A stretch of DNA of 64,000 bases from Candidatus Nanoarchaeia archaeon (GCA_028279725.1 JANQNE010000011.1:25872-89871); one strand, 5' to 3'. Shown: positions 1,882-59,936, counted from the stretch's first letter. The notes: generated from the letters alone by a model not told the origin. Translations and numbers: made by a program.

Positions 1882-2432
1882 AAAATATAGTCTTTTTTTC
1901 TCTTTTTGTCCCCTTTAATCGATACATGGACATTAAGGCTTCTTTGTAGTGCGTCTTTAATGATCTTTTTTGACTCTCTGAACAGTTCTGCCCTGTGGGA
2001 TTTGCTTATATCTGAGAATTTCCTGCTTAGCTTGTCTTGCAGAGCTGCAAAATCTTTTTCAAATTCCTTTTTTACTAATTTTTGCTTTTCTGCAAAGTAT
2101 TTCTTGACTTCATCCATGATCTCTTTCTTTATCTTGGATAGGTTGGCTGTCTTTTTTATGACTTCAGCCTCTTTTTTCATTGCTCTTAGCATTATTGCAA
2201 GCTCTTTCTTTGTCTCTGAGAAATTTGTGTAGTGCTTTTCAACATCCTGGCTAACTTTTTCTGCTTTATCAAATACCTTATCAACCGTCTCTTTTGTCTT
2301 CCTTAATTTGGATTGTATGTATCCTTCCTCAGTCATTTTATGGTGTTTTAAGGCAGGATGGTATTTAAATGTTGGTTTTTGACAGCAATCTTTATAAATA
2401 GCCAGTTTTTCTGCTCTAGCTATGAAATTCAC
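1878..2432 (-). CDS. Hypothetical K/E-rich coiled-coil protein
   Basis: 184-aa ORF overlapping neighbours by 4 nt at both ends; charged heptad-like composition, no catalytic motifs. Confidence 0.4.
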   Translation of the reverse strand: MNFIARAEKLAIYKDCCQKPTFKYHPALKHHKMTEEGYIQSKLRKTKETVDKVFDKAEKVSQDVEKHYTNFSETKKELAIMLRAMKKEAEVIKKTANLSKIKKEIMDEVKKYFAEKQKLVKKEFEKDFAALQDKLSRKFSDISKSHRAELFRESKKIIKDALQRSLNVHVSIKGDKKRKKDYIF

Positions 2433-3240
2433 GAAGATGAATGCTCTGGGAAACGATATTATAGTGATAAATGGGATAGAAGAGAAGATTGAGAAGGATT
2501 ATTCTGAGCTAGCTATAGACCTCTGCAGAAGAAAATATGGGATAGGTGGAGATGGGATAGTGATAATAGAGAAAAGCGATAAGGCTGATGTCAAGATGAG
2601 AGTGTTTAATCCTGATGGTTCTGAAGGAGGGATAAGCATCAATGGAGCCAGGTGTGCTGCAAAATATGCTTTTGATCATGGGATGGCCAATAAGAAAGGC
2701 ATGACTATAGAGGCACAGAAAAGAGTTATGAATGCAGCACTGGAAGATGAGATGGTAGTTGATGTTGGAGAGCCTATATTAGATAGGAAAGAGATACCTA
2801 TGCTTGGAGAAGGAGAGAAAGTTGTTAATGAGCAGCTAGTTTTAAGTGACAGGATAGTAAGGATCACTGCATTATCCCTGGATAACCCTCATTGCGTTAT
2901 ATTTGTAGATGATCTGGCTGAATATGCTTTTGAAGAAGAGGGAAAGATCATAGAGAATCATGAGAGTTTTCCAAAGAGGACAAATGTTGAATTTGTTCAA
3001 GTGAATAATGAAGATGAGATCACTATACGAGTCTGGGAAAGAGGAGTTGGAACAACATTGAGCTGCGGAACCGGAGCTTGTGCATCAGTTGTTGCTGGTG
3101 TTTTGAATGAAAAGACAAATAGGAATGTTACAGTCCACATGGCTGGTGGGAATGTTAAGGTTGAATGGGATGAAAAGACAAACCATATAAAGATCACTGG
3201 CTCAGTTGAATATAATTTTGAAGGAGAAGTGAAAAGATAA
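2422..3240 (+). CDS. dapF: Diaminopimelate epimerase
   Basis: N-terminal MKFTKMNALGNDIIV matches the DapF signature (MxFxKMHGxGNDF). NPDGSEGGISINGARCAAKY and GTGACASVVAG correspond to the two catalytic-Cys regions. Length 272 aa. Confidence 0.8.
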   Translation: MKFTKMNALGNDIIVINGIEEKIEKDYSELAIDLCRRKYGIGGDGIVIIEKSDKADVKMRVFNPDGSEGGISINGARCAAKYAFDHGMANKKGMTIEAQKRVMNAALEDEMVVDVGEPILDRKEIPMLGEGEKVVNEQLVLSDRIVRITALSLDNPHCVIFVDDLAEYAFEEEGKIIENHESFPKRTNVEFVQVNNEDEITIRVWERGVGTTLSCGTGACASVVAGVLNEKTNRNVTVHMAGGNVKVEWDEKTNHIKITGSVEYNFEGEVKR

Positions 3241-4889
3241 TGGCAGAAGAAAATATCCATTGGGCAGACCAGATCGCTAAGGAAGTTAAGGAAAGGGTTG
3301 AGAAAGATCCTGTTCTTAAGAAGATTGTTGAAGAGAAGGGATTTATCGTATATGATGAGAAGACGCCATCTGGCACGATACATATAGGGTCTGGAAGAGG
3401 ATGGATAATACATGATGTTATCGCTAAGGCTATGAGAGATTTGGGGTTGAAAGCTAAGTTTATATTGAGTTCAGATGATATTGATCCTTATGACAAGCCG
3501 AACAAAGAACTGCCTAAGAGTTATGATAAATATCTAGGGATGCCTTTTAGGAATATTCCTTCACCTTTTGAAGGATATAAGAGCTTTGCAGACTATTATT
3601 TTATGCAGGTTGTTGAGAAGTTTGAAGAGATAGGCATAGAATGTGAGATACAGAGCACTGGTGAGCAGTATGAAAAGGGAACTTTTAATGCAGCGATAAA
3701 GAAAGTTTTGGATAATTCTGATACAATAAAGGAGATTTTTGAGGAAACTTATAGTAAAGAGTATAATAAGATCCCTTTTAATGTGATATGTGAGAAATGC
3801 GGAAAGATAGCAACTACAAAAGCGACAAAATGGGATAAAGAGAATGAGCTTTTGACATATAAGTGTGAGAAGAATCTTGTTGACTGGGCTGAAGGATGCG
3901 GTCATGAAGGACAGATAAGCCCTTATGATGGAAACGGGAAGCTTCCCTGGAAAGTTGAGTGGGCTGCTAAATGGCCTTCAGTCGGTGTTGTATGTGAGTT
4001 TGCCGGCAAAGATCATTTTACTGCTGGAGGTTCAAGAACTATTTCTATAGCAATAGCTGATCAGGTGTTAGATTTTCCACCACCTTATCCATCTACAAGA
4101 GAGGAGACAGGAAAAGGTTATGAGTTCTTTAATGTTGGCGGAAAGAAGATGAGCACTTCTAAAGGAAAGGGTTTTGGATTTGCTGAGATGTTCAATTATA
4201 TTCCTGCGCAGATTATTAGATATTTGTTGGTTAAGACTAGGCCGCATGCTGTGCTTGATTTTGATCCTGAAGGAAGAAATGATATGATACTTCTTTATGA
4301 AAGGTTTGATAGGGCAGAGAGGATGTATTTTGGAGAAGAGACTGATGATAACAAGAATGAAGTTGCAAACCAGAAGAGAATATATGAGTTAGCGCATGTT
4401 GGGGATATTCCTGACAGGATGCCTAAGCAGATACCATTTACTTTAGCTGCAACAGTTATACAAGTTGGATTAAGTGAGGAGAAAGCCATAGAGATATTGA
4501 AGAAAACAGGACATGTTGATGAAAATATTGAAGGGATGGATCTTCATTATGTACTGCAGAGATTAAGGGATGCAAAGAGATGGATAGAAAGGTTTGCTCC
4601 AGAGCAATATAAGTTTCAGGTGCAGGATAAATTAGCTGAAGGTATTGAGATTGATGATAAAGAGAAAGAAGTTCTTAAGAAGGTTATTGCTGAGCTTGAT
4701 AATGAGCTGGGTGAGGAAGAATTGCATAATAAATTCTGGGAATTATGCCAGGAAAATGATGTTAAACCAAAGGATTTTTTTAAAGCAGCGTATCAAGTGC
4801 TTATCAATAAAGATAGGGGACCAAAGTTAGCAGGTTTTATGCTTTCTATTGACAAAGATAAGGTTAAGAAACTTATTGAGAGTTTGTAA
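3240..4889 (+). CDS. lysK: Lysyl-tRNA synthetase, class I (archaeal type)
   Basis: N-terminus ENIHWADQIAKEV...PSGTIHIGSGRGW resembles class I LysRS (xHWAD...PSGxxHxGN). KMSKS-type motif KMSTSKGKG is present. Start ATG overlaps the dapF stop (ATAATGG). Confidence 0.85.
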   Translation: MAEENIHWADQIAKEVKERVEKDPVLKKIVEEKGFIVYDEKTPSGTIHIGSGRGWIIHDVIAKAMRDLGLKAKFILSSDDIDPYDKPNKELPKSYDKYLGMPFRNIPSPFEGYKSFADYYFMQVVEKFEEIGIECEIQSTGEQYEKGTFNAAIKKVLDNSDTIKEIFEETYSKEYNKIPFNVICEKCGKIATTKATKWDKENELLTYKCEKNLVDWAEGCGHEGQISPYDGNGKLPWKVEWAAKWPSVGVVCEFAGKDHFTAGGSRTISIAIADQVLDFPPPYPSTREETGKGYEFFNVGGKKMSTSKGKGFGFAEMFNYIPAQIIRYLLVKTRPHAVLDFDPEGRNDMILLYERFDRAERMYFGEETDDNKNEVANQKRIYELAHVGDIPDRMPKQIPFTLAATVIQVGLSEEKAIEILKKTGHVDENIEGMDLHYVLQRLRDAKRWIERFAPEQYKFQVQDKLAEGIEIDDKEKEVLKKVIAELDNELGEEELHNKFWELCQENDVKPKDFFKAAYQVLINKDRGPKLAGFMLSIDKDKVKKLIESL

Positions 4890-7446: not shown

Positions 7447-7722
7447 TTACTTAGAAAGCTTTGCTTTTATGCTGTCTCTTTCTGCTTCAATCTTTTTTAG
7501 TTCTGCTTTTTTCCCTTCCAGGTATTTTATCATCTCTTCTCTTCCTTCTCTTAGCTCCTGTATCTTTAATTGAGCCTGTTCAGCAGCATCTCTTGCATCA
7601 ATAAGGAGTTCAAGCTCACTTTTTGGAGCTTTTGTAGTATCAGCTTTTATCTGAGTGGAGTCTCCACCGTAAGTCATGGAGTAAATAAAATAAGGTATGA
7701 TCAATAGATATTTTCCGTACAT
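7447..7722 (-). CDS. Small membrane-anchored coiled-coil protein (hypothetical)
   Basis: N-terminal hydrophobic stretch YLLIIPYFIYSM followed by a charged coiled-coil region. Confidence 0.35.
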   Translation of the reverse strand: MYGKYLLIIPYFIYSMTYGGDSTQIKADTTKAPKSELELLIDARDAAEQAQLKIQELREGREEMIKYLEGKKAELKKIEAERDSIKAKLSK

Positions 7723-7747: not shown

Positions 7748-8314
7748 TTAAATCTTTTTGAGGCTTTTTAAAACCTCGGAAGGAGATTTTTCCTCGAATT
7801 CTTTTGAATATTCTTTATATTCATCTGTCTCTTTTAGGAATTGGTTTATGAGATGGAGTGCCTGTGCACTTGTATAGTTAAGACAGTTTAGGATGTGTTT
7901 CATGCAGTTCTTTTCTGTGAATTTGCAGTATTTATCTTCTGGCTCTATGAAGATCTTCAGTTCTCCGTCAATCCTTCTGAAACCAATAGGAAAGATCTTG
8001 CATATCAGTGGTCTGACTGGATAGACAATGCATTTTTTGTCTTCTAAGAAGATGCATTCTTTGTTTTCTTTGCTTTTTAGCTGGAGGACTTTTCCATTGT
8101 CACAGTATTCAAAATAAGAATGGTCGCGGTCTTCCATAACTTCTTTCTGCTCTTCTGGATCCTGGCATATCGGGCCATAGAAACAGAATTCTTCTATCTT
8201 TTTTCCAGTATGCTTTGATATCCTGTCTGCATCTCTTAGTGTAAGAAATGTCCCGTAATCTCCAATACAGCAATGTTCTTTGCATGTCTCACAAGGATGC
8301 TTATTCTGGCTCAA
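7748..8314 (-). CDS. Cys-cluster protein, YkgJ/UPF0153-like (putative Fe-S or Zn binding)
   Basis: N-terminal CETCKEHCC (CxxCxxxCC) plus further Cys pairs, as in YkgJ-family proteins. Confidence 0.45.
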   Translation of the reverse strand: MSQNKHPCETCKEHCCIGDYGTFLTLRDADRISKHTGKKIEEFCFYGPICQDPEEQKEVMEDRDHSYFEYCDNGKVLQLKSKENKECIFLEDKKCIVYPVRPLICKIFPIGFRRIDGELKIFIEPEDKYCKFTEKNCMKHILNCLNYTSAQALHLINQFLKETDEYKEYSKEFEEKSPSEVLKSLKKI

Positions 8315-9194
8315 AGTTGATCCACTCCCATTGTTTTGTCTCTTCTAAATTCCAAAGTTTCTTCCAGCCTGAATCACCCGACATAAAATCAATCTTTTTT
8401 GCTTTTAATTTTATTGCATTCTTTATATGTTCTGCTATAAGAAGCTTTCCTAAGTTCTTGATATCTGTGTTTGTTCCTCCGTCAAGGACATAGTAGACGT
8501 TATTGTAGAATATGGCTATTTCAGCAGCTTCTGTCTTGTTGCTGATCTTTATCGATAACATGTGAAGCATATCTTTTTCTTTTGCTGTTTCAACAAGTTT
8601 TTTCATGCTTTCTTCAAATCCATCCTGAAGATAGTTTGAATCTTCCCTAAATCTTTGTTTGTTAAGCTCTACAAGTGTCTTAAAGTCGTCTATGTTGTTC
8701 CATACTGTGCTGTAGTTCAGCTCTTCAAGATGCCTTAGGTCATATTTTATGTTTTTTCTGTGTTTTTTGCTGAAAGATGCAAAATAAGAGTCTATATCTG
8801 GAAAGTCCTCTATATTTAGTGAGAAGGATACATCGCATTCTTTTGGATCAGGAAAATATTCTTTCTCAGAATCATCTATGTATTCTATATTCATGTCTTC
8901 TGGGAATGAGTTAAGGAAATCTTTGATATGTTCTTTGTTTTTTATGAAGAATCTCCTTCTTTCAGGATAGTTTCCACCAAAGAATGCATGGAAATCATTA
9001 TCTCCTTCGTACTGTAATGGGAGCAGACCTATCTCTTTTCCTTCCTGGTAACCTACTACGAAAAAGAACTGATTAATCTTTGGATTGAAGAAGCAATGGT
9101 TGAACTCCCAAAGATCCCATAGTATCTCTTTTGGGCTGTATTTATCCCAAAGCTTCTTACAGTCTTCAAGTTTTGTGAAGGATTTAAATTCCAT
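8301..9194 (-). CDS. FemAB/CelD-like GNAT-fold protein (putative aminoacyl/acyl transferase), paralog A
   Basis: C-terminal region YYVLDGGTNTDIKNLGKLLIAEHIKNAIKLKAKKIDFMSGDSGWKKLW aligns with the C-termini of the two downstream paralogs (YY..G...LG......K..F.GS) and has the FemAB/CelD/BioF2-like (Acetyltransf_6-type) pattern. Function is inferred. Confidence 0.5.
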   Translation of the reverse strand: MEFKSFTKLEDCKKLWDKYSPKEILWDLWEFNHCFFNPKINQFFFVVGYQEGKEIGLLPLQYEGDNDFHAFFGGNYPERRRFFIKNKEHIKDFLNSFPEDMNIEYIDDSEKEYFPDPKECDVSFSLNIEDFPDIDSYFASFSKKHRKNIKYDLRHLEELNYSTVWNNIDDFKTLVELNKQRFREDSNYLQDGFEESMKKLVETAKEKDMLHMLSIKISNKTEAAEIAIFYNNVYYVLDGGTNTDIKNLGKLLIAEHIKNAIKLKAKKIDFMSGDSGWKKLWNLEETKQWEWINFEPE

Positions 9195-10107
9195 CCTTGT
9201 TTTTCCTCATTATCGAGAAAGTATATGTGTTGTATGTGCTTACTGGTTTAAATTTGTTCTTAAATTCAAGCAGGTCATCATCTGAACCGCCGAAATTGGC
9301 TTTATCGAAGCCCATCTTCTTTATCTCTATGAGGTCATATAGGTTTGTTATCTCTCCGAGTCCTTCAAATTTGTAGTTAAGCACACCTATGCCTGAATAA
9401 TATGTATTTGTGTTTGGAACTCTCCATCCTGCTGTTATCGAGCATGGAATTCCATCAACTATCAGTGTTTTTGCCATGTCACAGCCTGCGAAATCTGAAT
9501 CAACCATCCTAAAATAGCATTCTTTATAGGCAAAATCTTCTGCTCCTCTTTTATCTATCCAGTCTGTGATGATTTTCTTTAGTTCTTCTTTTGGAAGATC
9601 CAATGAATCTATTAGTTCAACTTTATGTTCTTCAAGGAATCTGTTCTTTATATTTCTTATCTTCTTCCATTTCTTTCCTTCAAGCTTATCTCCATCCCAT
9701 GTTTTCATATCATACATCGGCCATTCAAGCCTAAAGTTAAGCTGTCCTGATCTGAAGTCTGTGTTTTCAAGTTTTTCTTTCAGTTCTTTCCTGAATTTCT
9801 TGTCAACTTCTATCTGAAGCCTGTTAGCTTCGTCTTTGTTGAAAACATGATCTACAAACTTCATGAATGTTTCAAATTTCTCTTCTTTTGGAGCAAGGAC
9901 TTCAGATATCATATACCAAAGCTTGCCTGTCTTTGATTTTTGTGCAAGAACACCTTTGCTGTTATCAAAGCCTACAAATATAGGCATCTTTGCGCTTGTT
10001 GTCTGGTTCATATAGTGATGATAGTTATGTTCAGCATCATGGCCATGTATTTCAACAGCTTTTATTGCTTTTTCTTCAAATTCTTTCTTATCTGTCAATA
10101 CTTCCAA
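9184..10107 (-). CDS. FemAB-like GNAT-fold protein, paralog B
   Basis: Shares long identical motifs with paralog C: VLAPKE, GKKWKKIRNIKNRF, GCDM, ITAGWRVPNTNTYYSGIG, FGGSDDD. 307 aa. Confidence 0.5.
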   Translation of the reverse strand: MEVLTDKKEFEEKAIKAVEIHGHDAEHNYHHYMNQTTSAKMPIFVGFDNSKGVLAQKSKTGKLWYMISEVLAPKEEKFETFMKFVDHVFNKDEANRLQIEVDKKFRKELKEKLENTDFRSGQLNFRLEWPMYDMKTWDGDKLEGKKWKKIRNIKNRFLEEHKVELIDSLDLPKEELKKIITDWIDKRGAEDFAYKECYFRMVDSDFAGCDMAKTLIVDGIPCSITAGWRVPNTNTYYSGIGVLNYKFEGLGEITNLYDLIEIKKMGFDKANFGGSDDDLLEFKNKFKPVSTYNTYTFSIMRKNKDGI

Positions 10108-10119
10108 ACAAAAACACCC

Positions 10120-11034
10120 CTATTTCTTTGAGATTTTGAAAAAATAATACTTTTCCATACTATGTGGATTAAATTTCAGCTTGAAATTTAATAAGTTTTT
10201 CTTTTCAGAGCCTCCAAAATCGACAAAATCATATTTTTTTTCTTTTAACTGCTTTAGATCATCCACGTAAGCAACTTCTCCAAGTCCTTTGTGTTTGTAA
10301 TTGTGGATTCCTATGGATGAATAGTATGTGTTTGTATTGGGAATTCTCCATCCTGCTGTTATTGCACATGGTTCATCATTAACATAGATTATTCTTGTCA
10401 TATCACATCCTTTGAAGTCGTTCTCTACAAAGTTGAGGAATGTAGGGGCCCATGCTTTTGCTACAGTGCTTTTTCTTGTCTTTTCCCAGTCTTCGATTAC
10501 TTTTTTTATCAGTTCTTTGTCTTCTTTTTTGTATTCTTTTATCTCTATTCTGTTTTCATTGAAGAATGTGTTTTTGATGTTTCTTATCTTCTTCCAGTCT
10601 TTTCCTGGCAAAGAAGAGTCAAAATCATTCATATTGAATACTGGAGAGTCAAAGATCCTTGAAGGTTTATGGATGTTGTACTTTTCCTGGCTGATCTTGT
10701 TAAGAAATTTTCTTCTGAACTCTTTTTCTAATGTTAGGAATATCTTGTCTGATGATCTTAATGAATGTTCTATGAAGTTCAGCAGAAGGTCTAATTGTTT
10801 TTCTTTTGGAGCTAAAACATCTGAGATGATCTCATATTCATTATCATCTTCATAGTAAAGGGCGAAGACTCCATATTTTTCTTCAAAGATGAAGAAAGTC
10901 GGTATAACTCCTTCTTCTTTCATGTTATAATAATACCAGAAATTGTGTTCAGACATATTACCATAGCTGGAGATAAGCTGTTCAATAAGTTCCTTGCTTT
11001 CTAATATATTATTTATGACCCTCACGTTGATCAA
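10120..11034 (-). CDS. FemAB-like GNAT-fold protein, paralog C
   Basis: Tandem paralog of 9184-10107 (VLAPKE, GKDWKKIRNIKNTF, GCDM, ITAGWRIPNTNTYYSSIG, FGGSEKK). 304 aa. Confidence 0.5.
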   Translation of the reverse strand: MINVRVINNILESKELIEQLISSYGNMSEHNFWYYYNMKEEGVIPTFFIFEEKYGVFALYYEDDNEYEIISDVLAPKEKQLDLLLNFIEHSLRSSDKIFLTLEKEFRRKFLNKISQEKYNIHKPSRIFDSPVFNMNDFDSSLPGKDWKKIRNIKNTFFNENRIEIKEYKKEDKELIKKVIEDWEKTRKSTVAKAWAPTFLNFVENDFKGCDMTRIIYVNDEPCAITAGWRIPNTNTYYSSIGIHNYKHKGLGEVAYVDDLKQLKEKKYDFVDFGGSEKKNLLNFKLKFNPHSMEKYYFFKISKK

Positions 11035-11070
11035 GAAGAAGTTGTTATATTTAAATTATTAGATTCTCAA

Positions 11071-11163
11071 TGTATAACACGCTACGTTCTATTCTGGAAT
11101 GGATCTGTTTCAGATTCTAGTATTTTTATAACTCTGTCCGAGAACTTCGCTTGGTGTTATGCA
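11071..11163 (+). repeat. Copy 1 of a ~94-nt structured hairpin element (candidate ncRNA family)
   Basis: Terminal inverted repeat tgtataacac/gtgttatgca (10 bp, one G-U). Conserved internal GCTACGT..., CAGATTCTAG and ...ACTTCGCTTG shared with the copies at 48763-48857 and 59005-59097; inner 4-bp helix GTTC/GAAC. Confidence 0.55.
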
Positions 11164-11171
11164 CTTTAGGA

Positions 11172-12215
11172 TTAAGAATAACTGGTTTCTTCAGCTTTCT
11201 GCTGAGCTTCTATCAAAGGACCAAGTTTTTCTCTTAGGTTATGTCTTTCTATTGCACAATCAAGGATCTTCTGTATCATCTCATGATATTCTAATCCTAT
11301 TGACTGGGCTGCCATCGGTGTTGAGCAATCACAAGAGATTCCTGGATTTGGATTCATCTCTAAAACATAAGGGATGTTGTTTTCGCTTAATCTTATGTCA
11401 ACTCTTCCGTAATCCCTTACATCTAATAACCTGTATAGTTCTGCTGCAACTCTTTTGATCTTTGATTCTACATATTTAGGGATATCATCTGGCTGCCTGT
11501 AGTCTGCATTCTTGTATAATTCACTTTTTTCATCCCATTTAGCTTCATAAGAGAAGATTCTCATAGGGTCTGGAGTTAAGTTCTTGAAAGAAACTTCCAT
11601 AATTGGCAAGCTTATGAGGTTGCTTCCATTTCCAAGGACTCCAACATCAAGATCTCTTCCTCTGATATATTCTTCAACCAATGCAGGCTGATTGTATACT
11701 CTGTTTATGAATCCAACTCTTGACTGCAGCTCTTTTTCATTTCTTACTATTGCATCTGAGCTGATACCTATGCTGTTGTCCATCCTTGATGGCTTTACTA
11801 TCAAAGGAAAATGCAGATCAGGATCAAGTTTCTTGTTTCTTGAGTAAAATATCTGCCATTTTGGTGTTGGAATGCCATGATGCATCATTATCTCTTTTAC
11901 CCTAGCCTTATTCATACAAAGAGCCAGGCTTAAAGGACCAGAACCAGTATATGGTATATCTAACAGTTCAAGCATAGCTGCAACATGAGGCTCATGGAAC
12001 GAGTTTCCGTTGAATCTTTCGCAAACATTGAAAGCTATGTCAACATTTGCTCTTGACAGCTTACCAAATGTCTGTTCATTGACATCAAAGAACTCAACAT
12101 CATGGTTATTCTTCTTCAATGCTTCATGAACAAGGTTTCCAACCTTGAAAAGATCATTCTCAACTTCCTTATTTGAATATTCTTTAAAGATGTTAGAAAG
12201 AACAGCTACTTTCAT
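11172..12215 (-). CDS. ATP-grasp ligase of the D-alanine--D-alanine ligase family
   Basis: Ddl-like blocks: EPHVAAMLELLDIPYTGSG (cf. EDGxxQGxLExxxxPYVG), PLIVKPSRMDNSIGIS, ALVEEYIRGRDLDVGVLGN, RVDIRL...IPYVLEMNPNPGI. 347 aa. Confidence 0.7.
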   Translation of the reverse strand: MKVAVLSNIFKEYSNKEVENDLFKVGNLVHEALKKNNHDVEFFDVNEQTFGKLSRANVDIAFNVCERFNGNSFHEPHVAAMLELLDIPYTGSGPLSLALCMNKARVKEIMMHHGIPTPKWQIFYSRNKKLDPDLHFPLIVKPSRMDNSIGISSDAIVRNEKELQSRVGFINRVYNQPALVEEYIRGRDLDVGVLGNGSNLISLPIMEVSFKNLTPDPMRIFSYEAKWDEKSELYKNADYRQPDDIPKYVESKIKRVAAELYRLLDVRDYGRVDIRLSENNIPYVLEMNPNPGISCDCSTPMAAQSIGLEYHEMIQKILDCAIERHNLREKLGPLIEAQQKAEETSYS

Positions 12216-12866
12216 TTAGCACTGCACCCCTGTAGAAAACAACAACACACCATCTTTTTTTTGTTTTAGGTAAAAAAACATTCGGTTTATCACCAGTTTT
12301 TTATTTTTTTTATTTGTTAATGCAATTATATACTTTTTTATTTATAAATGTTATGTTTTTTGTTATTTTTTTAGAAATTTTTCTATAAAAAAGTTTTTTT
12401 AGTCTTATTCTTTTGTTTTTTATTTTGTTTTTTATCGTCGAGAAAATAACTTTTTTATGTTTTTGCTTTATTTTTTTACTTAATCTTGTTTTTTTGTTAG
12501 TTTTTGTAAAAAATTGCAAAAAAAGAAATTTTTAGTTTACTTTTTTTGGTAAAAATTTTTGTTTTATTTTTATCGTCGATAAAAAGTTTAGGAATTTTTT
12601 AGAAAAAATTTATTTTTTTAATTTTTGTTTAATTTTTTAGATTTTGTGATTATTTTTTCATCTTTTATTTTCTTTTTATTTTTTTCAAAGAATAGTTTGA
12701 TTTTACTTATTGGATGTTGTTTTTTTGTTTGATTTCTGATGATTAGAAAACATTGGGTTTTCTAGCGTTTATTTGCTAAACTTTCAGAAAAAATTATACA
12801 TTATCAGAAAAGTTTATAAAGAGATTTAGGATATATTTCGCTATAAAACCAAAAAGGGGTATTACT
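12216..12866. other. 650-bp T-rich low-complexity divergent intergenic region with repeated TTTTATCGTCGA(G/T)AAAA motif
   Basis: Non-coding (the only ORF is a K-rich artefact). tatcgtcgagaaaa at 12433-12446 and tatcgtcgataaaaa at 12571-12585. Separates the minus-strand Ddl/Fem operon from the plus-strand retropepsin/RimK/AsnB operon. Confidence 0.5.
12813..12820 (+). promoter_or_regulatory. Putative archaeal TATA box for the 12867-16424 operon
   Basis: tttataaa lies ~50 bp upstream of the ATG at 12867, with an aaaggggt RBS at -14 to -7; positional inference only. Confidence 0.25.
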
Positions 12867-13211
12867 ATGGCTGCAAAACAAAAAATAATAGGGCTTACTG
12901 AAAAAGTACTGGTCTATGGCCAGAATAAAAAGAAAAATGTTGTCGCTAGGATAGATACTGGAGCGACAAAGTCTTCTATCGATGTAAAATTAGCTGCTGA
13001 GCTGCAGTTAGGTCCTATATACAGGACTAAATTAGTCAAGTCTACCCATGGTAATACATTAAGGCCTGTTGTTGAGATGAACATAAGACTTTCTGGGGTG
13101 GAATTAAGGTCAGATTTTACGATAGCTGACAGAACTGATATGAAATATCAGATATTGGTCGGCCAGAATATATTGAAAGAGGGAAATTTTTTGGTTAATC
13201 CTAAAAAATGA
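12867..13211 (+). CDS. RimK-associated retropepsin-like aspartic-protease-fold protein ('putative ATP-dependent zinc protease' family)
   Basis: DTGATKSSID (D-T/S-G-A) motif in a ~115-aa protein; its stop overlaps the start of the downstream RimK-like gene (ATGA), as in the conserved bacterial pair. Confidence 0.6.
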   Translation: MAAKQKIIGLTEKVLVYGQNKKKNVVARIDTGATKSSIDVKLAAELQLGPIYRTKLVKSTHGNTLRPVVEMNIRLSGVELRSDFTIADRTDMKYQILVGQNILKEGNFLVNPKK

Positions 13212-14311
13212 AAGCTGCATTAATCAGTCTAGGAAGCAAGAGCTCTCAATTTACAGCTGAAGCTATGAAGAATTACTTTGATGAAGTTGATGATCTTGAT
13301 ATAAAGAATATAGAAGTTAATTTTGGTGTTAAGGAGCTTGAACTATTATATAATGGAGAGCCTTTGAAGGATTATGACTGTGTCTATGCAAAAGGATCTT
13401 TCAGATATTCACCTTTGCTTGCGTCAATAACATCTGTATTGGCTAAGAAAGATATATATCTGCCGATAAGCGCAGATTCTTTTACTATAAGCCATGATAA
13501 GCTGCTTACACAGATAGAGCTTCAGAAGAACAAGATACCTATGCCTAAAACATATCTTTCTTCTACACCTGAAGCTGCAAGGGAGCTGTTAGAGAAGGTC
13601 AATTATCCTATAATCATGAAGTTTCCGCAGGGAACACAAGGGAAAGGGGTGATGGTCGCTGATTCTTTTGCTTCAGCATCTTCAATGCTTGATGCTTTGT
13701 CAGCTTTGAGACAGCCTTTTTTGATACAGGAATATATAGAGACAGGCGGAATCGATATAAGAGCGATAGTTGTGGGAAAGAAAGTTGTTGCAGCGATGAA
13801 AAGAAAGGCAGAAGGGGAAGAGAAGAGAGCAAATATACATGCAGGCGGTAAAGCAGAGCCTTGCCAGCTGGATGCTCACACTAAAAAGATCGCTATAGAT
13901 ACTGCAAAGGCAGTTGGTGCAGAGATATGCGGTGTTGATATATTAGAAAGTGCTAAGGGTCCTGTTGTCATTGAGGTGAATATATCTCCTGGGCTGCAGG
14001 GAATAATGGCTGCAACTAAGGTTAATGTTGCTGACAAGATAGCAAAATATCTTTATGAAGTTTCCAAGAAGAGATCTGAAGGGGATAAAAAAGAGTCAGC
14101 ATCAAAGATACTGAGCGATCTTGGTGTTGAAGAGGCAACAAAGACATCAAAAGATATAATGACGACCCTTGATTTCAGAGGAAAGAGGGTGTTGCTGCCT
14201 GAAGTTGTAACCAATCTTACTAAGTTTGATGATACGCAGGATGTTGTGATAAGTGCTGACAAAGGAAAGCTTGAGATAAAGAAGCTTATCATCGGCGCTA
14301 AGAAGAAATAA
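13208..14311 (+). CDS. RimK-family ATP-grasp ligase (alpha-L-glutamate ligase-like; LysX/ArgX/CofF/MptN relatives)
   Basis: ATP-grasp blocks PIIMKFPQGTQGKGV, LIQEYIETGGIDIRAIVVG, ICGVDILESAKGPVVIEVNISPG; a ~75-aa charged C-terminal tail lies beyond the grasp fold. Confidence 0.7.
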   Translation: MKAALISLGSKSSQFTAEAMKNYFDEVDDLDIKNIEVNFGVKELELLYNGEPLKDYDCVYAKGSFRYSPLLASITSVLAKKDIYLPISADSFTISHDKLLTQIELQKNKIPMPKTYLSSTPEAARELLEKVNYPIIMKFPQGTQGKGVMVADSFASASSMLDALSALRQPFLIQEYIETGGIDIRAIVVGKKVVAAMKRKAEGEEKRANIHAGGKAEPCQLDAHTKKIAIDTAKAVGAEICGVDILESAKGPVVIEVNISPGLQGIMAATKVNVADKIAKYLYEVSKKRSEGDKKESASKILSDLGVEEATKTSKDIMTTLDFRGKRVLLPEVVTNLTKFDDTQDVVISADKGKLEIKKLIIGAKKK

Positions 14312-14342
14312 CTTTTTAAATAGAGAGTTCTTGTTTTGTCCT

Positions 14343-16424
14343 ATGTGTGGGATTATAGGGATATTTAACCATAAGGATGCTAAGAAGCTAGCTAAGAAGG
14401 GGCTGTCTAAGATATTATACAGGGGAAAGGACAGTAATGGCCTCTTTAGTTCTGAGAATTGCTGTATCGGACATTGCCTGCATTCTGTAGTTAATTTTGT
14501 TGAACAGCCTTTCAAAGGAAAAGGTGTGCTGATCGTAAATTGCGAGCTGTATAATTGGGAAGAGCTTAACGATAAATATAAGTTTAAGGCAAGGAATGAT
14601 TCTGAATTACTTTTTATGTTGTTGGAGAAGAAAGGAGTTTCAAAGATCAAAGAGATATTAGATGAGCTGGATGGTGTTTATTCTTTCTGCTATTGGATTG
14701 ATGATAAAGTTTATGTTGCGAGAGATATAATCGGTGTAAAGCCATTATGGTTCTCTAAGTATGAGCATCTTGGTTTTGCTTCTGAGAAAAAGGCATTGAA
14801 AGAGATAGGAATGTTTGATGCTGAGGAACTAAATCCCAGGAAGATATTAGTTTATGATGTGAAGAAGAATAAGGTTGAATTTATCGAGAGGGATTTTTTA
14901 AAGATAACACCTGAATTGAAGTGTAAATATGAAAAGATAAAGAAAGAGCTGACTGGGCTTGTTGTTAATTCTATCTCTAAAAGGATACCTGATCAGAAGT
15001 TTGGGATATTGTTTTCCGGAGGGATTGACTCTGGTCTGATCGCACATGCATGTAAAGAATTAGGTGTTGATTTTACATGCTATACTGCTGCTTTGAAAGA
15101 AAAAGGGATGGGAGAAGCAGAAGATATGGTCTATGCTAAGAAAGTTGCTGATAAATTAGGATTCAGGCTAAAGACAAAGACAATTTCTCTTAAAGAAACT
15201 GAAAAGTATCTGAAAAAAGTAGTTCCTTTGATAGAAGATTCCAATGTTGTTAAAGTTGGAGTGGGATTGACTTTCTATGTTGCATGTGAGATGGCTAAGA
15301 AAGATGGGATCAAAGTTATATTTTCCGGACTTGGATCTGAGGAGCTGTTTGCCGGCTATGAAAGGCATAGGAAAAGTGATCTGATAAACAAAGAATGCCT
15401 TTCTGGAGTCATTAAGATATATGAAAGGGATCTTTATAGGGATGATGTTATTGCGATGGCAAACAATCTTGAGCTTAGGCTTCCTTTTCTGGATAAGAAG
15501 CTTACTAGTTATGCACTGAAGATTCCTGCTAAATACAAGATAAAAGATGGGTTGACTAAAGTTGTTCTCCGTGATGTTGCTGTTGGTCTTGGTTATGATA
15601 AAGAATTTGCATCTAGAAGGAAGAAAGCTGCGCAGTATGGAAGCAAGTTTGACAGAGCGATAGCTAAACTTGCTAAGAGAAAAGGATTTAACCTTAAATC
15701 AGAATATTTGAGGACCTTTTATCCGGAAGTTAATCTTAAGCTAGGTGTGTTGTTCAGTTCTGGGAAAGACAGCTGCTATGCGATGCATGTTATGAAAAGA
15801 CAGAATTATGAGATAAGCTGCCTGATAACATTAAAGAGCAAAAATAAAGATTCTTATATGTTTCATACGCCTGCTATCGAGCTTGCTGAAGTGCAGGCGA
15901 AGGCGATGGAATTACCTATAATAGAACAGGAGACTGCAGGTGTTAAGGAAAAAGAGCTTGCTGATCTGAAGAAGGCATTAGCTGCTGCAAAGAAAGAGCA
16001 TAAGATAGAAGGTGTTGTGACCGGAGCATTATTTTCTAAATATCAGCGTGAAAGGATAGAGAAGGTTGCTGATAGTCTTGGGTTAAAGATATTTTCTCCT
16101 TTGTGGCATATGGATCAGGAGACTGAGCTTAAAAGTTTGGTGAGAGAAGGATTTGATGTTATTATCAGCTCTATAGCTGGTTATGGCATGGAAACAAAAG
16201 ATATAGGAAAGAGGATTGATGATAAGATGATCTCGAAATTGAGAAGGTTAAAAGATAAGATCGGGTTTAATGTAGCTGGAGAAGGCGGAGAGTTTGAGAG
16301 CTTTGTCCTTGATGGGCCTATGTTTAAGAAGAGATTGGAGATTGTTGATAGCCAGAGAGCTATAGAGAATGAATGTACTGGCAGGATGCTGATCAAGAAG
16401 ATTAAATTAGTCGACAAGAAATAG
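14343..16424 (+). CDS. Fusion: glutamine-dependent asparagine-synthetase-like amidotransferase (Ntn-GATase + PP-loop) + Dph6/MJ0570-like ATP pyrophosphatase domain
   Basis: MCGIIGI (Cys1 nucleophile), LYRGKD, NCELYNW, NDSELLF and RDIIGVKPLWF match AsnB N-domain motifs. SGGIDSG is the AsnB PP-loop. A second PP-loop FSSGKDSCYAMHVM and EGGEFESF (cf. EGGEYET) match the diphthine-ammonia-ligase family. The ORF-track start at 14331 is a TTG; the ATG at 14343 puts Cys at position 2. Confidence 0.7.
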   Translation: MCGIIGIFNHKDAKKLAKKGLSKILYRGKDSNGLFSSENCCIGHCLHSVVNFVEQPFKGKGVLIVNCELYNWEELNDKYKFKARNDSELLFMLLEKKGVSKIKEILDELDGVYSFCYWIDDKVYVARDIIGVKPLWFSKYEHLGFASEKKALKEIGMFDAEELNPRKILVYDVKKNKVEFIERDFLKITPELKCKYEKIKKELTGLVVNSISKRIPDQKFGILFSGGIDSGLIAHACKELGVDFTCYTAALKEKGMGEAEDMVYAKKVADKLGFRLKTKTISLKETEKYLKKVVPLIEDSNVVKVGVGLTFYVACEMAKKDGIKVIFSGLGSEELFAGYERHRKSDLINKECLSGVIKIYERDLYRDDVIAMANNLELRLPFLDKKLTSYALKIPAKYKIKDGLTKVVLRDVAVGLGYDKEFASRRKKAAQYGSKFDRAIAKLAKRKGFNLKSEYLRTFYPEVNLKLGVLFSSGKDSCYAMHVMKRQNYEISCLITLKSKNKDSYMFHTPAIELAEVQAKAMELPIIEQETAGVKEKELADLKKALAAAKKEHKIEGVVTGALFSKYQRERIEKVADSLGLKIFSPLWHMDQETELKSLVREGFDVIISSIAGYGMETKDIGKRIDDKMISKLRRLKDKIGFNVAGEGGEFESFVLDGPMFKKRLEIVDSQRAIENECTGRMLIKKIKLVDKK

Positions 16425-28169: not shown

Positions 28170-28738
28170 TATTTACACCTTATCACTCTTTTTTCGGTAA
28201 TTATCATATCCATCGGGATGTCATAATCTTCTGTTGGTATATTTTTTGTTATCTGTTCTTCAAATGCAAGCCCTATTTTTAGGGAGTTTCTGTCTTTCAG
28301 GAATCTGTCGTAAAAACCTTTTCCGAATCCTATCCTTGCTCCGCTTTGGTCAAAAGCGATGCCTGGGACGAGGACGATGTCCAGGTTTTCTTTGTATTCC
28401 TCTTTTTTGATTGGTTCGAGTACTCCGAAGTTCCCTTCTTTTAGGTCATTGAAGTCAGATAATTTTGATATCTTTATGTTGTTTTCTTCGACAAATGGGA
28501 TGATTACTGTCTTTTGCTGCAGTTGTTCTTTGATTAATTCTATTGTGTTTACCTCACTTTTTAGTGAAAGGTAAGACATCACTATGTTTGCTTTTTTGAA
28601 CTCATCCAGATCTTTTAGATGTTGGATGATTGTCTTGCTTTTTTCTGAGATCTGTTCTTCCGGTATGTTATCTCTTATGGACCTTATGGTGTTTCTGATC
28701 TCTTGTTTGTTTATTCTGTTCATAGTGCGATTCTTCAC
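28169..28738 (-). CDS. 5-formyltetrahydrofolate cyclo-ligase (MTHFS)
   Basis: GARIGFGKGFYDRF (GxGxGyYDR) family signature; 189 aa; overlaps neighbours on both sides. Confidence 0.75.
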   Translation of the reverse strand: MKNRTMNRINKQEIRNTIRSIRDNIPEEQISEKSKTIIQHLKDLDEFKKANIVMSYLSLKSEVNTIELIKEQLQQKTVIIPFVEENNIKISKLSDFNDLKEGNFGVLEPIKKEEYKENLDIVLVPGIAFDQSGARIGFGKGFYDRFLKDRNSLKIGLAFEEQITKNIPTEDYDIPMDMIITEKRVIRCK

Positions 28739-31404
28739 TTTTGCCTATCAAGCTCTTTTTTTGCAATATCTTTTCTAAAAAACATGCCGTCGAAGTTTAT
28801 GTCATTTATTTTTGTGTATGCTGTATCGACGGCATCTTTAAGGGTTGATCCTAATGTGATTACATTTAATACTCTTCCTCCATTTGTGAGGATCTTTCCG
28901 TTATCTTTCTTTGTTCCAGCGTGAATCACCTGTGCTCCACTTATGTTATCTAAACCTTTTATCTCTTTTCCCTTTTCATATGAACCAGGATAACCTCCTG
29001 ATGCTAGTACTATGCTTACGCAGTGTTTTTCAGACCAGTCTAGTTTCATAGCTCCTAGTTTCTTGTCTATTACTGCGTTCATTACGTCAAGTATATCATT
29101 GTTTAATCTTGGAAGGATAACCTGTGTTTCCGGATCTCCAAATCTGCAGTTGAATTCTAAGATCTTTAGGCCGTCTTTTGTTTTCATAAGTCCGACGTAG
29201 AGGACTCCTTTGTATTCTATGCCTTCTGCTTTTGTTCCAGCTATGAATGGCTTAATTATCTTTTCTTCCATCTCTTTTTCAAGTCCGTCTAATATTGGTG
29301 CTGGTGAGTAAGCTCCCATCCCTCCTGTATTAGGGCCTTTGTCTCCTTCATAGATTGGTTTGTGATCCTGTGAATATACCATTGGCTTGAATGTTTCTGA
29401 GTCTACGAAGACTAAGTAGGACCCTTCTTCACCTACAAGACATTCTTCTACAACTATTGATGAAGATGCATCTCCGAATTTGTTTGCTTTTAGGCATTCT
29501 TCTGCAAACTTTACTGCTTCTTCTACTGTGTTTGCGACAAGAACTCCTTTTCCAGCAGCTAGTCCGTCTGCTTTTACGACAATTGGTGCTCCCTGCTTTT
29601 CGATGTATGCTTTTGCTTTTTCAAAATCAGTGAATTCATCAAATTCAACTGTTGGAAGATTATATTTTTTCATGAATCTTCTTGCAAATGCTTTTGATCC
29701 TTCAAACTGTGATGCTTTTTTGTTAGGGCCGAAGACTCTTATCCCTGCTTTTTCAAGTTCGTCAGCTGCTCCGTTAACTAGCGGAGCTTCTGGACCTATG
29801 ATTGCAAGATCTATCTTCTTTTCTTTTGCAAACTTGACTAAAGCTTCATTATCATTTTGGTCGATATCATGACAGCAAGCTACCTGGCCAATACCTGGAT
29901 TTCCCGGGACTGCGTATAGTTTGTTTAATCTGTCAGATTCTGTGACTTTTAATGCAATAGCATGCTCTCTTCCGCCTGAACCAACTATCATTACGTTAAG
30001 TTTGGTGTCTAATGTTGTCTGCTCTTCTGTTCTCTGGCAACCAAGGCATTGCTGCTGTGATTCTGATACTGGTTCTGGGTATTCTCCTGTTAAACATGCC
30101 ATACATACATCCCTCCTTGTAGCATTCTTGATATTATCAACTGTTGCATATACTAAATTATCTGCTTCAAGATATTCTCTTATCTGTTCTATTGATTTAT
30201 CTGAAGCTATAAGCTCTTTTTTTGTCGCCATGTCTATCCCATAGAAGCATGGGAATTTTATAGGAGGACAAGCAGAAACAAATGTAACTTTTCTAACTCC
30301 TCCATCTTTTAATGTTCTTACTATCCTTTTTGATGTTGTTCCCCTTACAATGCTGTCATCAACTACAGCAACACTCTTGTTTTCAAGTATACTTATTACA
30401 GGCCTTAGTTTTCTTCTTACTGAGTCATGCCTTGTCTTTTGTGATGACATTATGAATGTTCTTTGTATATATTTATCTTTGATCAGACCTTCCCTATATT
30501 TTACAGCAAGATCTTCACTTAATTTTATAGCAGCTGTCCTTCCTGAATCTGGAACTGGGACTACAACATCGATGTCTTTTTGGTCCATCTGCTCGCTCAT
30601 CAGTTTTCCAAGAGCTAATCTTGTCTTGTATACTGATCTGTTCTCTATCATGCTGTTCGGGCTTGCAAAATATATCCATTCAAACATACAATGAGCTTTT
30701 TTCTCCTGTTTTAGGATCTTGCTTTCTATAACCAAGTCTTTTGAGATAAAAACAGCTTCTCCTGGCTCTATATCTCTGACATAATCATGATCAATAACCT
30801 GAAATGCTACAGTTTCTGAAGCAAATATGTATGAATCTCCTCTCTTTCCGAGAACTAAAGGCCTTATGCCTCTTGGATCTCTTATCGCGAATATACCTTT
30901 GTCTGCTATCATTCCAACAATTGAGTAAGCTCCTCTTACCTTATCCATGAAGTGCTTTGCAGCTGCAAAGAAATCTCCATGCTGTTCGTAATGCTCTGCG
31001 AATATTCTTAGAAGAACTTCACCGTCAACAGAGGTTTCAAGATGTTTTCCTTTTTTTTGGAATTCTTCTTTTAGGTCGAAGTAGTTTATTGTGTTTCCGT
31101 TCTGAGCCATAGCAACTTTTGGGTTGATCTTTGTTGTAAGAGGTTGTGCGTCGCACAACATTCCTTTTCCCTGTGTTGCATATCTTGTGTGGCCGATGCC
31201 CATCTTCCCTTGTAATAGGTTTGCGTCTCTTGCCTTGAATACTCTGTGAACAGCATCCATCTCTTTTTTTGTGAAGAATTCGTCTTTTACGTTTGTTACT
31301 ATGCCGCATGCATCCTGGCCTCTATGCTGCAATGACATCAAGCTAGTTACTGCATCCTCAAAAACTTCATCATCTTTTGAAACAATACCAATAATTCCGC
31401 ACAT
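28735..31404 (-). CDS. Fusion of amidophosphoribosyltransferase (PurF, Fe-S type) and phosphoribosylamine--glycine ligase (PurD)
   Basis: N-terminus MCGIIGIV (Ntn Cys1), PRTase VVDDSIVRGTTS, Fe-S ligand regions CMFEWIYFASP and CMACLTGEYP. After a short linker comes LNVMIVGSGGREHAIALKV (PurD start) and the ATP-grasp C-terminal half. 889 aa. Confidence 0.85.
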   Translation of the reverse strand: MCGIIGIVSKDDEVFEDAVTSLMSLQHRGQDACGIVTNVKDEFFTKKEMDAVHRVFKARDANLLQGKMGIGHTRYATQGKGMLCDAQPLTTKINPKVAMAQNGNTINYFDLKEEFQKKGKHLETSVDGEVLLRIFAEHYEQHGDFFAAAKHFMDKVRGAYSIVGMIADKGIFAIRDPRGIRPLVLGKRGDSYIFASETVAFQVIDHDYVRDIEPGEAVFISKDLVIESKILKQEKKAHCMFEWIYFASPNSMIENRSVYKTRLALGKLMSEQMDQKDIDVVVPVPDSGRTAAIKLSEDLAVKYREGLIKDKYIQRTFIMSSQKTRHDSVRRKLRPVISILENKSVAVVDDSIVRGTTSKRIVRTLKDGGVRKVTFVSACPPIKFPCFYGIDMATKKELIASDKSIEQIREYLEADNLVYATVDNIKNATRRDVCMACLTGEYPEPVSESQQQCLGCQRTEEQTTLDTKLNVMIVGSGGREHAIALKVTESDRLNKLYAVPGNPGIGQVACCHDIDQNDNEALVKFAKEKKIDLAIIGPEAPLVNGAADELEKAGIRVFGPNKKASQFEGSKAFARRFMKKYNLPTVEFDEFTDFEKAKAYIEKQGAPIVVKADGLAAGKGVLVANTVEEAVKFAEECLKANKFGDASSSIVVEECLVGEEGSYLVFVDSETFKPMVYSQDHKPIYEGDKGPNTGGMGAYSPAPILDGLEKEMEEKIIKPFIAGTKAEGIEYKGVLYVGLMKTKDGLKILEFNCRFGDPETQVILPRLNNDILDVMNAVIDKKLGAMKLDWSEKHCVSIVLASGGYPGSYEKGKEIKGLDNISGAQVIHAGTKKDNGKILTNGGRVLNVITLGSTLKDAVDTAYTKINDINFDGMFFRKDIAKKELDRQK

Positions 31405-55917: not shown

Positions 55918-56928
55918 ATGGAAAAACGAAAAAGAGGAAGGAAAGACAAAAAGCTAGTTCTGTTCAGGAAGTTGAAAAAGATAGAGAGTGAGGTATTTAA
56001 TGACGGGTTTACATACCTGGTAAGCTTATTGAGATATCCAAATCACAGGAGTTTCCAGTACGGGACTTTAGAGCATATATACAAGAAAAGGAATGAGGGT
56101 TCTTTCAAGAATTTCTTTTTTGATAAGAAGTTGTATCAGCTTGTTAAGAAGGAGATTGAAATTCTTTATCCAAAATATAAAAGGATAAGGATAATCATAA
56201 CAAGGTATGGTATAATGGTGTGTGATAATTATAGGCCTAATAACTTTAATGTGTTGCTTCTGACTATCCATGCCGGAAGGTGGGCTCCTGAGAATATCGA
56301 AAAGAAGATGAGATTGACCAGGACAGGAAGGTTTAGGGAGGAAGATATCGACTCTGACAGGATATATTCTAATATTGTTCTTGAGAGAGGAGGTATATGG
56401 ATCAACTCTAAACTTTCAAGATATGTCTGTGACCTTAACAGGCCACAGAACAGGTGCATATATTTCAAGAAAGATGAGAAATGGATAGATAACGATATCT
56501 GGGATGATGATCTTACAAATAAAGAGATAACACAGATAAACAGGTGGCATCAGGATTTTTATGTTACACTACATAAAGTGTTGGAGACGTATAAGTTCAA
56601 TATAATATTTGACGGGCATACTATGAAAGACAGGCCTGGAAGACCAACGATAAGTTTTGGTACAAAGCATATATCTCCATTCTATATGCCTGTTGTGAGA
56701 GCGATGAAAAACAGGCTTAAGAAAGTGGGGTATAAAGATACTTTTTTCAACAGGCCTTATGGCGGTGGTTTCATTTTGAAATGGCTGAAGACCAAATTCC
56801 AGGATAAGTTTATATTCTCTATGGAGATAAACAAGAAAGAATATATGAATAAAGACAGGACTAAGACAAAGAAGGATAAGGTTGAAAGGTTAAGCCATGA
56901 GATAACACAGATATTTGATATAAAATGA
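55918..56928 (+). CDS. N-formylglutamate amidohydrolase (FGase/HutG-like) family protein
   Basis: LLTIHAGRWAPE (HxGxxxP), CDLNRPQN (DxNR) and a later FDGHTM His motif, typical of the FGase fold. Confidence 0.45.
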   Translation: MEKRKRGRKDKKLVLFRKLKKIESEVFNDGFTYLVSLLRYPNHRSFQYGTLEHIYKKRNEGSFKNFFFDKKLYQLVKKEIEILYPKYKRIRIIITRYGIMVCDNYRPNNFNVLLLTIHAGRWAPENIEKKMRLTRTGRFREEDIDSDRIYSNIVLERGGIWINSKLSRYVCDLNRPQNRCIYFKKDEKWIDNDIWDDDLTNKEITQINRWHQDFYVTLHKVLETYKFNIIFDGHTMKDRPGRPTISFGTKHISPFYMPVVRAMKNRLKKVGYKDTFFNRPYGGGFILKWLKTKFQDKFIFSMEINKKEYMNKDRTKTKKDKVERLSHEITQIFDIK

Positions 56929-59834: not shown

Positions 59835-59936
59835 GGGCCTATAGTCTAATGGATAGAACAACCGGCTTCGGTAAGTGGGGTCAAAAGCTTCGCTTGTGGG
59901 TACCGGTTAGTGGGGGTTCGAATCCTCCTAGGCCCA
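59835..59936 (+). tRNA. tRNA-Arg (anticodon TCG) with a 30-nt intron at the canonical 37/38 position
   Basis: Acceptor GGGCCTA/TAGGCCC, T-arm GGGGG-TTCGAAT-CCTCC, anticodon stem ACCGG/CCGGT, loop C-T-TCG-G with U33 and G37. A 30-nt insert TAAGTGGGGTCAAAAGCTTCGCTTGTGGGT lies between G37 and A38. CCA is not encoded. Confidence 0.8.

Follow-up and report, generated by a model that had tools for sequence, protein, structure and literature searches.

What does an archaeon make with a D-alanine-D-alanine-ligase-like (Ddl-like) enzyme, three Fem-like GNAT-fold proteins, a RimK-type ligase and a glutamine amidotransferase encoded side by side, and do these genes belong together at all? The question is raised by a 64,000-nt stretch of Candidatus Nanoarchaeia archaeon DNA (GCA_028279725.1, JANQNE010000011.1:25872-89871), which is called the window below; all coordinates are positions in it. 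A first-pass annotation had read the cluster as a single, horizontally acquired eight-gene pathway. All eight open reading frames (ORFs) that it named were recovered in the ORF listing at the positions it gave, and its family calls agreed with Pfam and NCBIfam. According to our analysis, the eight-gene region comprises three unrelated units, and only one of them, the minus-strand operon, is a conserved module of Woesearchaeota, as delineated by gene content, folds, residue patterns, neighbourhood statistics and operon-like spacing. On balance, we think that this module encodes a cytoplasmic pathway leading to an aminoacyl or short-peptidyl amide conjugate, with a polyamine-type acceptor being favoured, and we hold this view with moderate confidence.

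The operon spans positions 7748-12215 of the minus strand and contains, in this order, genes D, C, B, A and a CxxCxxCC gene. Gene D (11172-12215, 347 aa), the first gene of the conserved operon, codes for a predicted Ddl-fold ATP-grasp amide ligase. Gene C (10120-11034) encodes a free-standing DUF2156 (MprF C-domain-like) tandem-GNAT protein of 304 aa, or 301 aa with the start three codons later used by the gene caller, and is a putative aminoacyl-tRNA transferase. Gene B (9184-10107, 307 aa) is a second DUF2156 paralogue, and gene A (8301-9194, 297 aa) encodes a tandem-GNAT protein of the Acetyltransf_6 family (Fem/CelD-type) that is remotely homologous to B and C. The last gene (7748-8314, 188 aa), an accessory gene for a CxxCxxCC (YkgJ/PF03692) metal-binding protein, had been overlooked in the first-pass annotation, which correctly named the other four. 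D and C are separated by 137 nt and C and B by 12 nt, while B and A overlap by 11 nt and A and the CxxCxxCC gene by 14 nt.

The conservation of this arrangement was assessed in two scans, from which relative loci were fetched and given L numbers. A metagenome scan with a Ddl-like profile yielded 69 loci, with the 51 Ddl-like genes that have at least 600 bp of downstream sequence being informative. In 46 of these 51, the Ddl-like gene is followed on the same strand by a DUF2156 gene, 40 times as the next gene and six times as the next but one, the intervening gene in the six usually being of the CxxCxxCC type. The gaps between the two measure 1-171 bp, and the genes upstream of the Ddl-like gene vary. 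In L050, the closest relative with a long contig (77% identity), the order Ddl-DUF2156-DUF2156-Acetyltransf_6-CxxCxxCC is the same as in the window. Because a DUF2156 gene follows the Ddl-like gene so regularly, the Ddl-like and GNAT-fold genes are taken to be a functional unit, as had been surmised before. The second scan, of GTDB genomes with a DUF2156 profile, returned 45 loci whose neighbouring genes were clustered; all are from DPANN archaea, except for one labelled Portnoybacteria. Across the relatives, one to three DUF2156 genes occur per locus, with marine relatives having one that groups near B in the tree, and an A-type gene lies beside a DUF2156 gene, mostly directly after it, in 12 of the 45 genome loci and in L050. 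Genes further away behave differently: dapF, confirmed at 2422-3240 by its DAP_epimerase match, and PGDH show no recurrence in the related loci. A convergent class-I lysyl-tRNA synthetase (LysRS) gene stands immediately after Ddl>DUF2156 in L122 (8158-9879) and in L068 and L070 (both 12158-13879), three loci that may all be of one lineage. It adjoins the module in these three only, and the window copy (3240-4889) lies 6 kb from the operon. This neighbourhood is a possible hint that Lys-tRNA serves as donor.

The product of gene D is a Ddl-like protein. It matches Pfam Dala_Dala_lig_C with an E-value of 1e-33 and PDB sequences with E-values down to 4e-28, and its AlphaFold2 model (pLDDT 86) retrieved Ddl enzymes as all top 50 Foldseek PDB matches (TM 0.69-0.86). 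The D family is 50-84% identical across Woesearchaeota in the best 120 clusters. At the same time, D scores under every NCBIfam Ddl cut-off, the best model reaching 187 bits vs 243. Alignment with an E. coli DdlB reference sequence indicates that the ATP, Mg and acyl-phosphate/catalytic residues K144, E180, K215, R255, D257, E270 and N272 are kept. In the same alignment, the D-Ala-binding positions are replaced: there is no GGxSxE loop with E15, N stands in place of both H63 and S150, E68 is lost, an invariant W takes the position of Y216, and the S281/L282 loop is variable. Because the D-Ala-binding residues are replaced and the scores fall below the Ddl cut-offs, D is predicted to be a Ddl-fold amide ligase acting on a different substrate pair, and no bona fide D-Ala-D-Ala ligase.

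Of the GNAT-fold proteins, C is the most clearly classified, matching LPG_synthase_C/DUF2156 (PF09924) with 40.3 bits vs a cut-off of 27.5. Its AlphaFold2 model, built with 25 homologues, has a pLDDT of 94.6 and adopts a tandem-GNAT fold. The best Foldseek match was the free-standing Bacteroides DUF2156 protein 2hqy (TM 0.73-0.76), followed by the C-domains of MprF, A-PGS and L-PGS (0.61-0.68), FemX (0.62-0.64) and the aminoacyl-tRNA-dependent peptide synthases Sbb17 and Sba18 (0.57-0.61). Between the two GNAT halves lies a basic helix, residues 145-160 (GKDWKKIRNIKNTF), in which K148, R151, N152 and N155 are invariant in the family. It corresponds to the positively charged inter-domain helix that is essential for the use of aminoacyl-tRNA in aaPGS and ErgS (PMC8913301). 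The N-terminal multi-pass flippase domain of MprF proper is absent, B and C comprising 301-307 aa that are all covered by the soluble tandem-GNAT fold. A sequence search of the PDB with the C-family profile gave nothing significant, the link to solved structures being made only by fold search and by a diverged paralogue, DUFb (2hqy, E 4e-16).

B shares 37% identity with C along its entire length and matches PF09924 with a sub-threshold 22.6 bits, the match being limited to the basic-helix region. A belongs to Acetyltransf_6 (PF13480, E 3e-15) and lies outside PF09924 by hidden Markov model search, and a PDB sequence search with the A-family profile likewise found nothing significant. When a profile of 15 A-type proteins was compared with the C family, hhalign reported a probability of 90% (E 1.6e-6) over 260 colinear columns, with KKHRKN of A standing opposite WKKLRN of C. 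Based on the fold and helix of C, the B-C identity and the A-C profile alignment, A, B and C are all predicted to be Fem/MprF-type tandem-GNAT proteins. The former description of three FemAB-like GNAT genes is right as to the Fem/MprF tandem-GNAT fold. Pfam FemAB itself (PF02388) was matched by none of the three proteins at E<=0.01; two of them are DUF2156 proteins and one is an Acetyltransf_6 protein.

The 188-aa protein encoded downstream of A matches PF03692 with 25.5 bits vs 23. Orthologues occupy the equivalent position in L050, L005 and L007, and a second CxxCxxCC family (cluster 17) is found between or after the Ddl-like and DUF2156 genes in about 12 loci. The operon may extend further. 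An ORF of 91 aa with a hydrophobic N-terminus (7447-7722, minus strand), also recognised by gene calling on the source contig, begins 25 nt downstream of the CxxCxxCC gene and may be co-transcribed with it; it has no Pfam match and no homologue in any fetched locus, and its membership of the module is uncertain.

The plus-strand genes across the divergent spacer form two further units. Gene E (12867-13211, 114 aa) encodes a retropepsin-like peptidase, with matches to the Zn_protease and gag-asp_proteas (retropepsin) families and a DTG motif (IDTGA), and overlaps by 4 nt with gene F (13208-14311, 367 aa), which encodes a RimK-family alpha-L-glutamate ligase (TIGR00768, 202.5 bits vs 143.4). Near the Ddl module, the RimK and retropepsin genes were seen only in the window, in its close relative L104 and, 7 kb off, in L043, the latter being the one case among the 45 genome loci. 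In L050, AsnB-Dph6 is divergent from Ddl and no RimK pair lies between them. E and F are therefore a separate two-gene module outside the Ddl/DUF2156 unit. Since bS6 is a bacterial protein, absent from archaea, the target of E and F must differ from that of the RimK-RimB (RimABK) system for polyglutamylation of ribosomal protein S6, and the two would constitute a RimB/RimK-type trimming and polyglutamylation pair with an archaeal target of its own. RimK and RimB are a known pair, and the likeness lies in the overlap between a retropepsin-like gene and the beginning of the RimK-family ligase gene (PMC11957791). E and F differ in remaining below the S6/RimB equivalog level (PRK10446, 154.6 bits vs 331; RimB, 39 bits vs 200) and in the C-terminal extension of F, about 80 residues (~290-367) without a Pfam match. 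The only other full-length F copy fetched, that of L043, has a similar length (357 aa) and may have kept the extension.

Gene G (14343-16424, plus strand) joins an AsnB-type glutamine amidotransferase and a diphthine-ammonia ligase (Dph6) in one protein, with the domains GATase_7, Asn_synthase and Diphthami_syn_2. Starting at MCGI (14343), it comprises 693 aa and carries its nucleophile Cys at position 2. The Dph6 part (residues 473-690, SSGKDS motif) scores 274.6 bits vs 197.3 with TIGR03679; the AsnB part, in which MCGI and SGGIDS are present, reaches 260.9 bits vs a cut-off of 267.1 with TIGR01536. The fusion is found in more than 120 protein clusters of Woesearchaeota and Nanoarchaeota at 56-77% identity, named diphthine--ammonia ligase by NCBI, with lengths of 677-746 aa except for one cluster of 658 aa; neither PP-loop is damaged, and the Cys2 nucleophile is preserved. 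In three other genomes (L123-L125) it stands in three unrelated neighbourhoods, that of L123 including a DRG-type GTPase, KTI12 and eRF1, and Dph6 occurs in just one of the 45 DUF2156 genome loci. G is thus a lineage-wide housekeeping fusion outside the Ddl/DUF2156 unit, and a role as the amidotransferase of a ligation pathway finds no support. It may be a glutamine-dependent diphthamide synthetase. In the window it stands at the head of a string of purine-nucleotide genes, being followed by IMPDH, adenylosuccinate synthase (PurA) and GMP synthase (GuaA). An assignment to the NAGGN system (Ngg and AsnO) was rejected on the scores (TIGR03103, 43.6 bits vs 569; TIGR03104, 128.5 vs 570). The region 16540-37227 holds a near-complete gene set for purine de novo synthesis and interconversion, unusual for a DPANN archaeon, with PurF and PurD fused (28735-31404, 889 aa) and PurL/PurQ split or fused.

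The conserved partners of DUF2156 genes that had been missed before are polyamine and hypusine genes. Within four genes of DUF2156 in the 45 genome loci, we found AdoMet decarboxylase-like genes (AdoMet_dc) 30 times, Arginase-fold (agmatinase-like) genes 28 times and deoxyhypusine synthase (DHS) 14 times, at least one of the three being present in 35 of these Woesearchaeota/Nanoarchaeota loci. A diverged DUF2156 paralogue was counted 14 times, Acetyltransf_6 12 times and a Ddl-like gene only five times. The amine-pathway genes come in at least four different arrangements: AdoMet_dc>Ddl>DUF2156 in L024, L033 and L055, agmatinase>Ddl>DUF2156 in L094 and L095, agmatinase>DHS>Ddl>DUF2156 in L097, and AdoMet_dc>Ddl>agmatinase>DUF2156>Acetyltransf_6 in L044. 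A variant operon in L120 (470-6909; also in L084 and L093) reads Ddl-like > PurD-like ATP-grasp > third ATP-grasp > LysA/FslC-like pyridoxal-phosphate-dependent decarboxylase > DUF2156, the PurD-like protein scoring 102 bits vs 288 and the decarboxylase 167 bits vs 298. Its gene content suggests that ligation comes first and is followed by decarboxylation to an amine conjugate. A direct link to aIF5A was considered and finds no support, no aIF5A gene (hypusine-loop motif) being present in any fetched locus. Spermidine synthase was seen in one likely copy among the fetched loci, in L026. This locus, labelled Candidatus Portnoybacteria (a candidate phyla radiation bacterium), carries DUF2156 together with two AdoMet_dc-like genes and the likely spermidine synthase (GGGDG motif), and represents either a misbinned contig, which is our preferred view, or a cross-domain transfer.

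How might the module work? In our proposal, D would turn a carboxylate into an acyl phosphate and couple it to an amine other than D-alanine. One to three DUF2156/Fem-type tandem-GNAT proteins would then add amino acids, most likely taken from aminoacyl-tRNA, the varying number of paralogues recalling FemX/A/B. This would yield an aminoacyl or short-peptidyl amide conjugate in the cytoplasm, and the CxxCxxCC protein might assist in metal binding or redox chemistry. As acceptor we favour a polyamine-type amine (agmatine or putrescine) or else a precursor amino acid because the DUF2156 genes of relatives lie among AdoMet-decarboxylase-like, agmatinase and deoxyhypusine synthase genes and because of the variant ATP-grasp/decarboxylase operons. 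A narrower version, in which the Woesearchaeota pathway uses the Ddl-fold ligase and the DUF2156/Fem-type transferases to build aminoacyl- or peptidyl-polyamines, or to act in an agmatine, putrescine or deoxyhypusine route, is a tentative extension that we regard as unlikely in exactly this form. Several observations weigh against the proposal. An amine-pathway gene is nearby in only nine of 67 Ddl-anchored loci, and the 64 kb of the window contain no polyamine gene. Part of the polyamine linkage falls inside a larger conserved block, L21e-Rpo4-DUF655-M50-AdoMet_dc, and this block-borne part could be inherited synteny. The loci stem from pattern-based scans and are phylogenetically non-independent. 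Moreover, characterised DUF2156 enzymes, including the free-standing ErgS, all act on lipids and not on amines (PMC8913301), and some tandem-GNAT enzymes among the Foldseek matches of C, such as glucosamine N-acetyltransferase and the clavulanate tandem GNAT, use acyl-CoA and not tRNA.

The last two points lead directly to competing explanations. Given that the nearest structures are DUF2156/MprF C-domains and that lipids are the substrates of the characterised enzymes, the DUF2156 proteins could, in the manner of MprF and ErgS, use aminoacyl-tRNA to load membrane lipid headgroups with Lys, Ala or another amino acid, tuning the surface charge of the DPANN cell, with the Ddl-like ligase supplying or modifying a headgroup substituent. 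The LysRS gene, which adjoins Ddl>DUF2156 in L122, L068 and L070 and lies 6 kb off in the window, would suit this scheme. However, the proteins measure about 300 aa and lack any flippase or membrane domain, lipid-synthesis genes are not seen to recur in the neighbourhoods, and neither the near-obligate ATP-grasp partner nor the polyamine and decarboxylase neighbours are explained, leaving lipid aminoacylation a possibility that we rate as fairly unlikely. Alternatively, A, B and C could be acyl-CoA-dependent tandem GNATs that acylate a polyamine or the product of D without tRNA, comparable to MshD, glucosamine N-acetyltransferase and polyamine acetyltransferases. Polyamine N-acetylation is a common GNAT function, CoA-using tandem GNATs were also retrieved by Foldseek (TM 0.41-0.55), and a conserved loop in GNAT II (KHKGLG) is, in our reading, KxxGxG-like. 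By TM-score and E-value, however, the top matches are DUF2156 and Fem enzymes that depend on tRNA, a group for which the invariant basic helix between the domains is typical, and separate small GNAT genes follow DUF2156 in about nine loci; acyl-CoA dependence of all three proteins therefore appears distinctly unlikely.

Two further explanations dispense with the module or enlarge it. DPANN genomes are gene-dense and also conserve larger, unrelated syntenic blocks, such that the minus-strand genes might be adjacent through inherited synteny and share no common function. Yet the Ddl>DUF2156 adjacency outlasts many changes of flanking genes across the 50-84% identity range, and the window genes overlap by 11 and 14 nt or sit 12 nt apart, making an accidental association improbable. 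The reading of all eight genes as one horizontally acquired pathway, which would build and amidate either a stem peptide resembling that of peptidoglycan or a surface polymer decorated with amino acids, had the attraction that the named domain families are all present and adjacent; Ddl, Fem-type transferases and an amidotransferase are the bacterial toolkit for stem peptides. The gene context contradicts it: neither the RimK/retropepsin pair nor the lineage-wide AsnB-Dph6 is conserved as a neighbour, and a search of the window ORFs scanned and of the genes recurring around about 120 loci brought up no Mur ligase, MraY or glycosyltransferase. The D-Ala-binding residues of D, too, are lost. Across genomes, the plus-strand genes show no conserved co-occurrence, whereas the Ddl/GNAT operon does. 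Composition and homologue distribution, moreover, indicate vertical descent. GC content is uniform, and the identity of homologues falls off smoothly. Close homologues are all labelled Woesearchaeota or Nanoarchaeota, confirming the archaeal host as a Woesearchaeota-type DPANN and leaving recent horizontal transfer unsupported. We consider the eight-gene pathway to be very improbable.

Some additional features of the window were recorded. The divergent intergenic region of 650 bp (12216-12866) holds the promoters of both units and is T-rich with about 25% GC, in keeping with its earlier description as an AT-rich control region. It contains two copies of TTTTATCGTCGA(G/T)AAAA, at 12429-12446 and 12568-12585, and both Logan contigs of the source genome (SRR20820740) stop close to it. 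As an RNA gene it matched no Rfam family at gathering thresholds. Elsewhere, Rfam detected a tRNA at 59835-59936 (51.6 bits, 102 nt) that was missed by ARAGORN; it probably carries an intron, which fits the archaeal origin. Two overlapping genes at 55918-58325, encoding an N-formylglutamate-amidohydrolase-family protein and a weakly GCS2-like carboxylate-amine ligase, may be a further amidoligase/amidohydrolase pair.

The characterised DUF2156/Fem transferases, which are mostly bacterial or fungal, divert aminoacyl-tRNA to lipids, peptidoglycan or antibiotics. With a conserved archaeal module, this chemistry would reach DPANN archaea, the physiology of which is almost unknown, and the module offers four or five soluble proteins open to in vitro study. 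If the polyamine reading holds true, these proteins would be the first tRNA-dependent transferases from archaea whose acceptor, outside peptidoglycan synthesis, is not a lipid, and would connect translation substrates in a new way to polyamine or hypusine metabolism. With the RimK pair and AsnB-Dph6 being separate, a false lead is also removed, the ORFs scanned and the recurrent neighbours giving no sign of a hidden peptidoglycan-like pathway. Searches of the literature on archaeal DUF2156, on Woesearchaeota/DPANN D-alanine ligases, on aminoacyl-tRNA transferases with polyamines and on ATP-grasp with DUF2156 found no description of the module, and a paper on pseudomurein pangenomics deals with a different ATP-grasp.

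In comparison with characterised systems, the module is a combination of known kinds, namely free-standing DUF2156/MprF C-domains, Fem and Ddl, that fails membership of MprF, FemABX and Ddl proper. D shares with Ddl enzymes the full-length fold, 25-29% identity and the residues for ATP, Mg and acyl phosphate, but differs at the D-Ala-binding positions E15, H63, E68, S150, Y216 and S281/L282, remains below all NCBIfam Ddl cut-offs and has a DUF2156 gene as partner, not murF or the dcw cluster. The variant operon of L120, in joining ATP-grasp ligases with a LysA/FslC-like decarboxylase, resembles the logic of rhizoferrin (FslA/FslC) and butirosin (BtrJ/BtrK) synthesis, although this is an analogy of logic with no orthology involved, and the window lacks the decarboxylase. 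With the MprF/aaPGS C-domain, ErgS and B. thetaiotaomicron 2HQY, the DUF2156 proteins have in common the tandem-GNAT fold with its basic inter-domain helix and the PF09924 match, and like ErgS and 2HQY, B and C are free-standing at about 300 aa. They differ in that C and B are 10-16% identical to the solved members, have no flippase domain and are archaeal (DPANN); DUF2156 is here almost always paired with a Ddl-fold ligase or located among polyamine genes, and the acceptor of B and C is probably other than lipid. FemX/FemABX, Sbb17/Sba18 and PacB-type enzymes differ in turn, as Pfam FemAB is not matched, A is an Acetyltransf_6 protein, and the context is neither a peptidoglycan nor an antibiotic cluster. 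What the module shares with them is the fold (TM 0.57-0.64), the paralogues in a row as in FemX/A/B and, as we propose, the logic of adding amino acids to a small-molecule amine.

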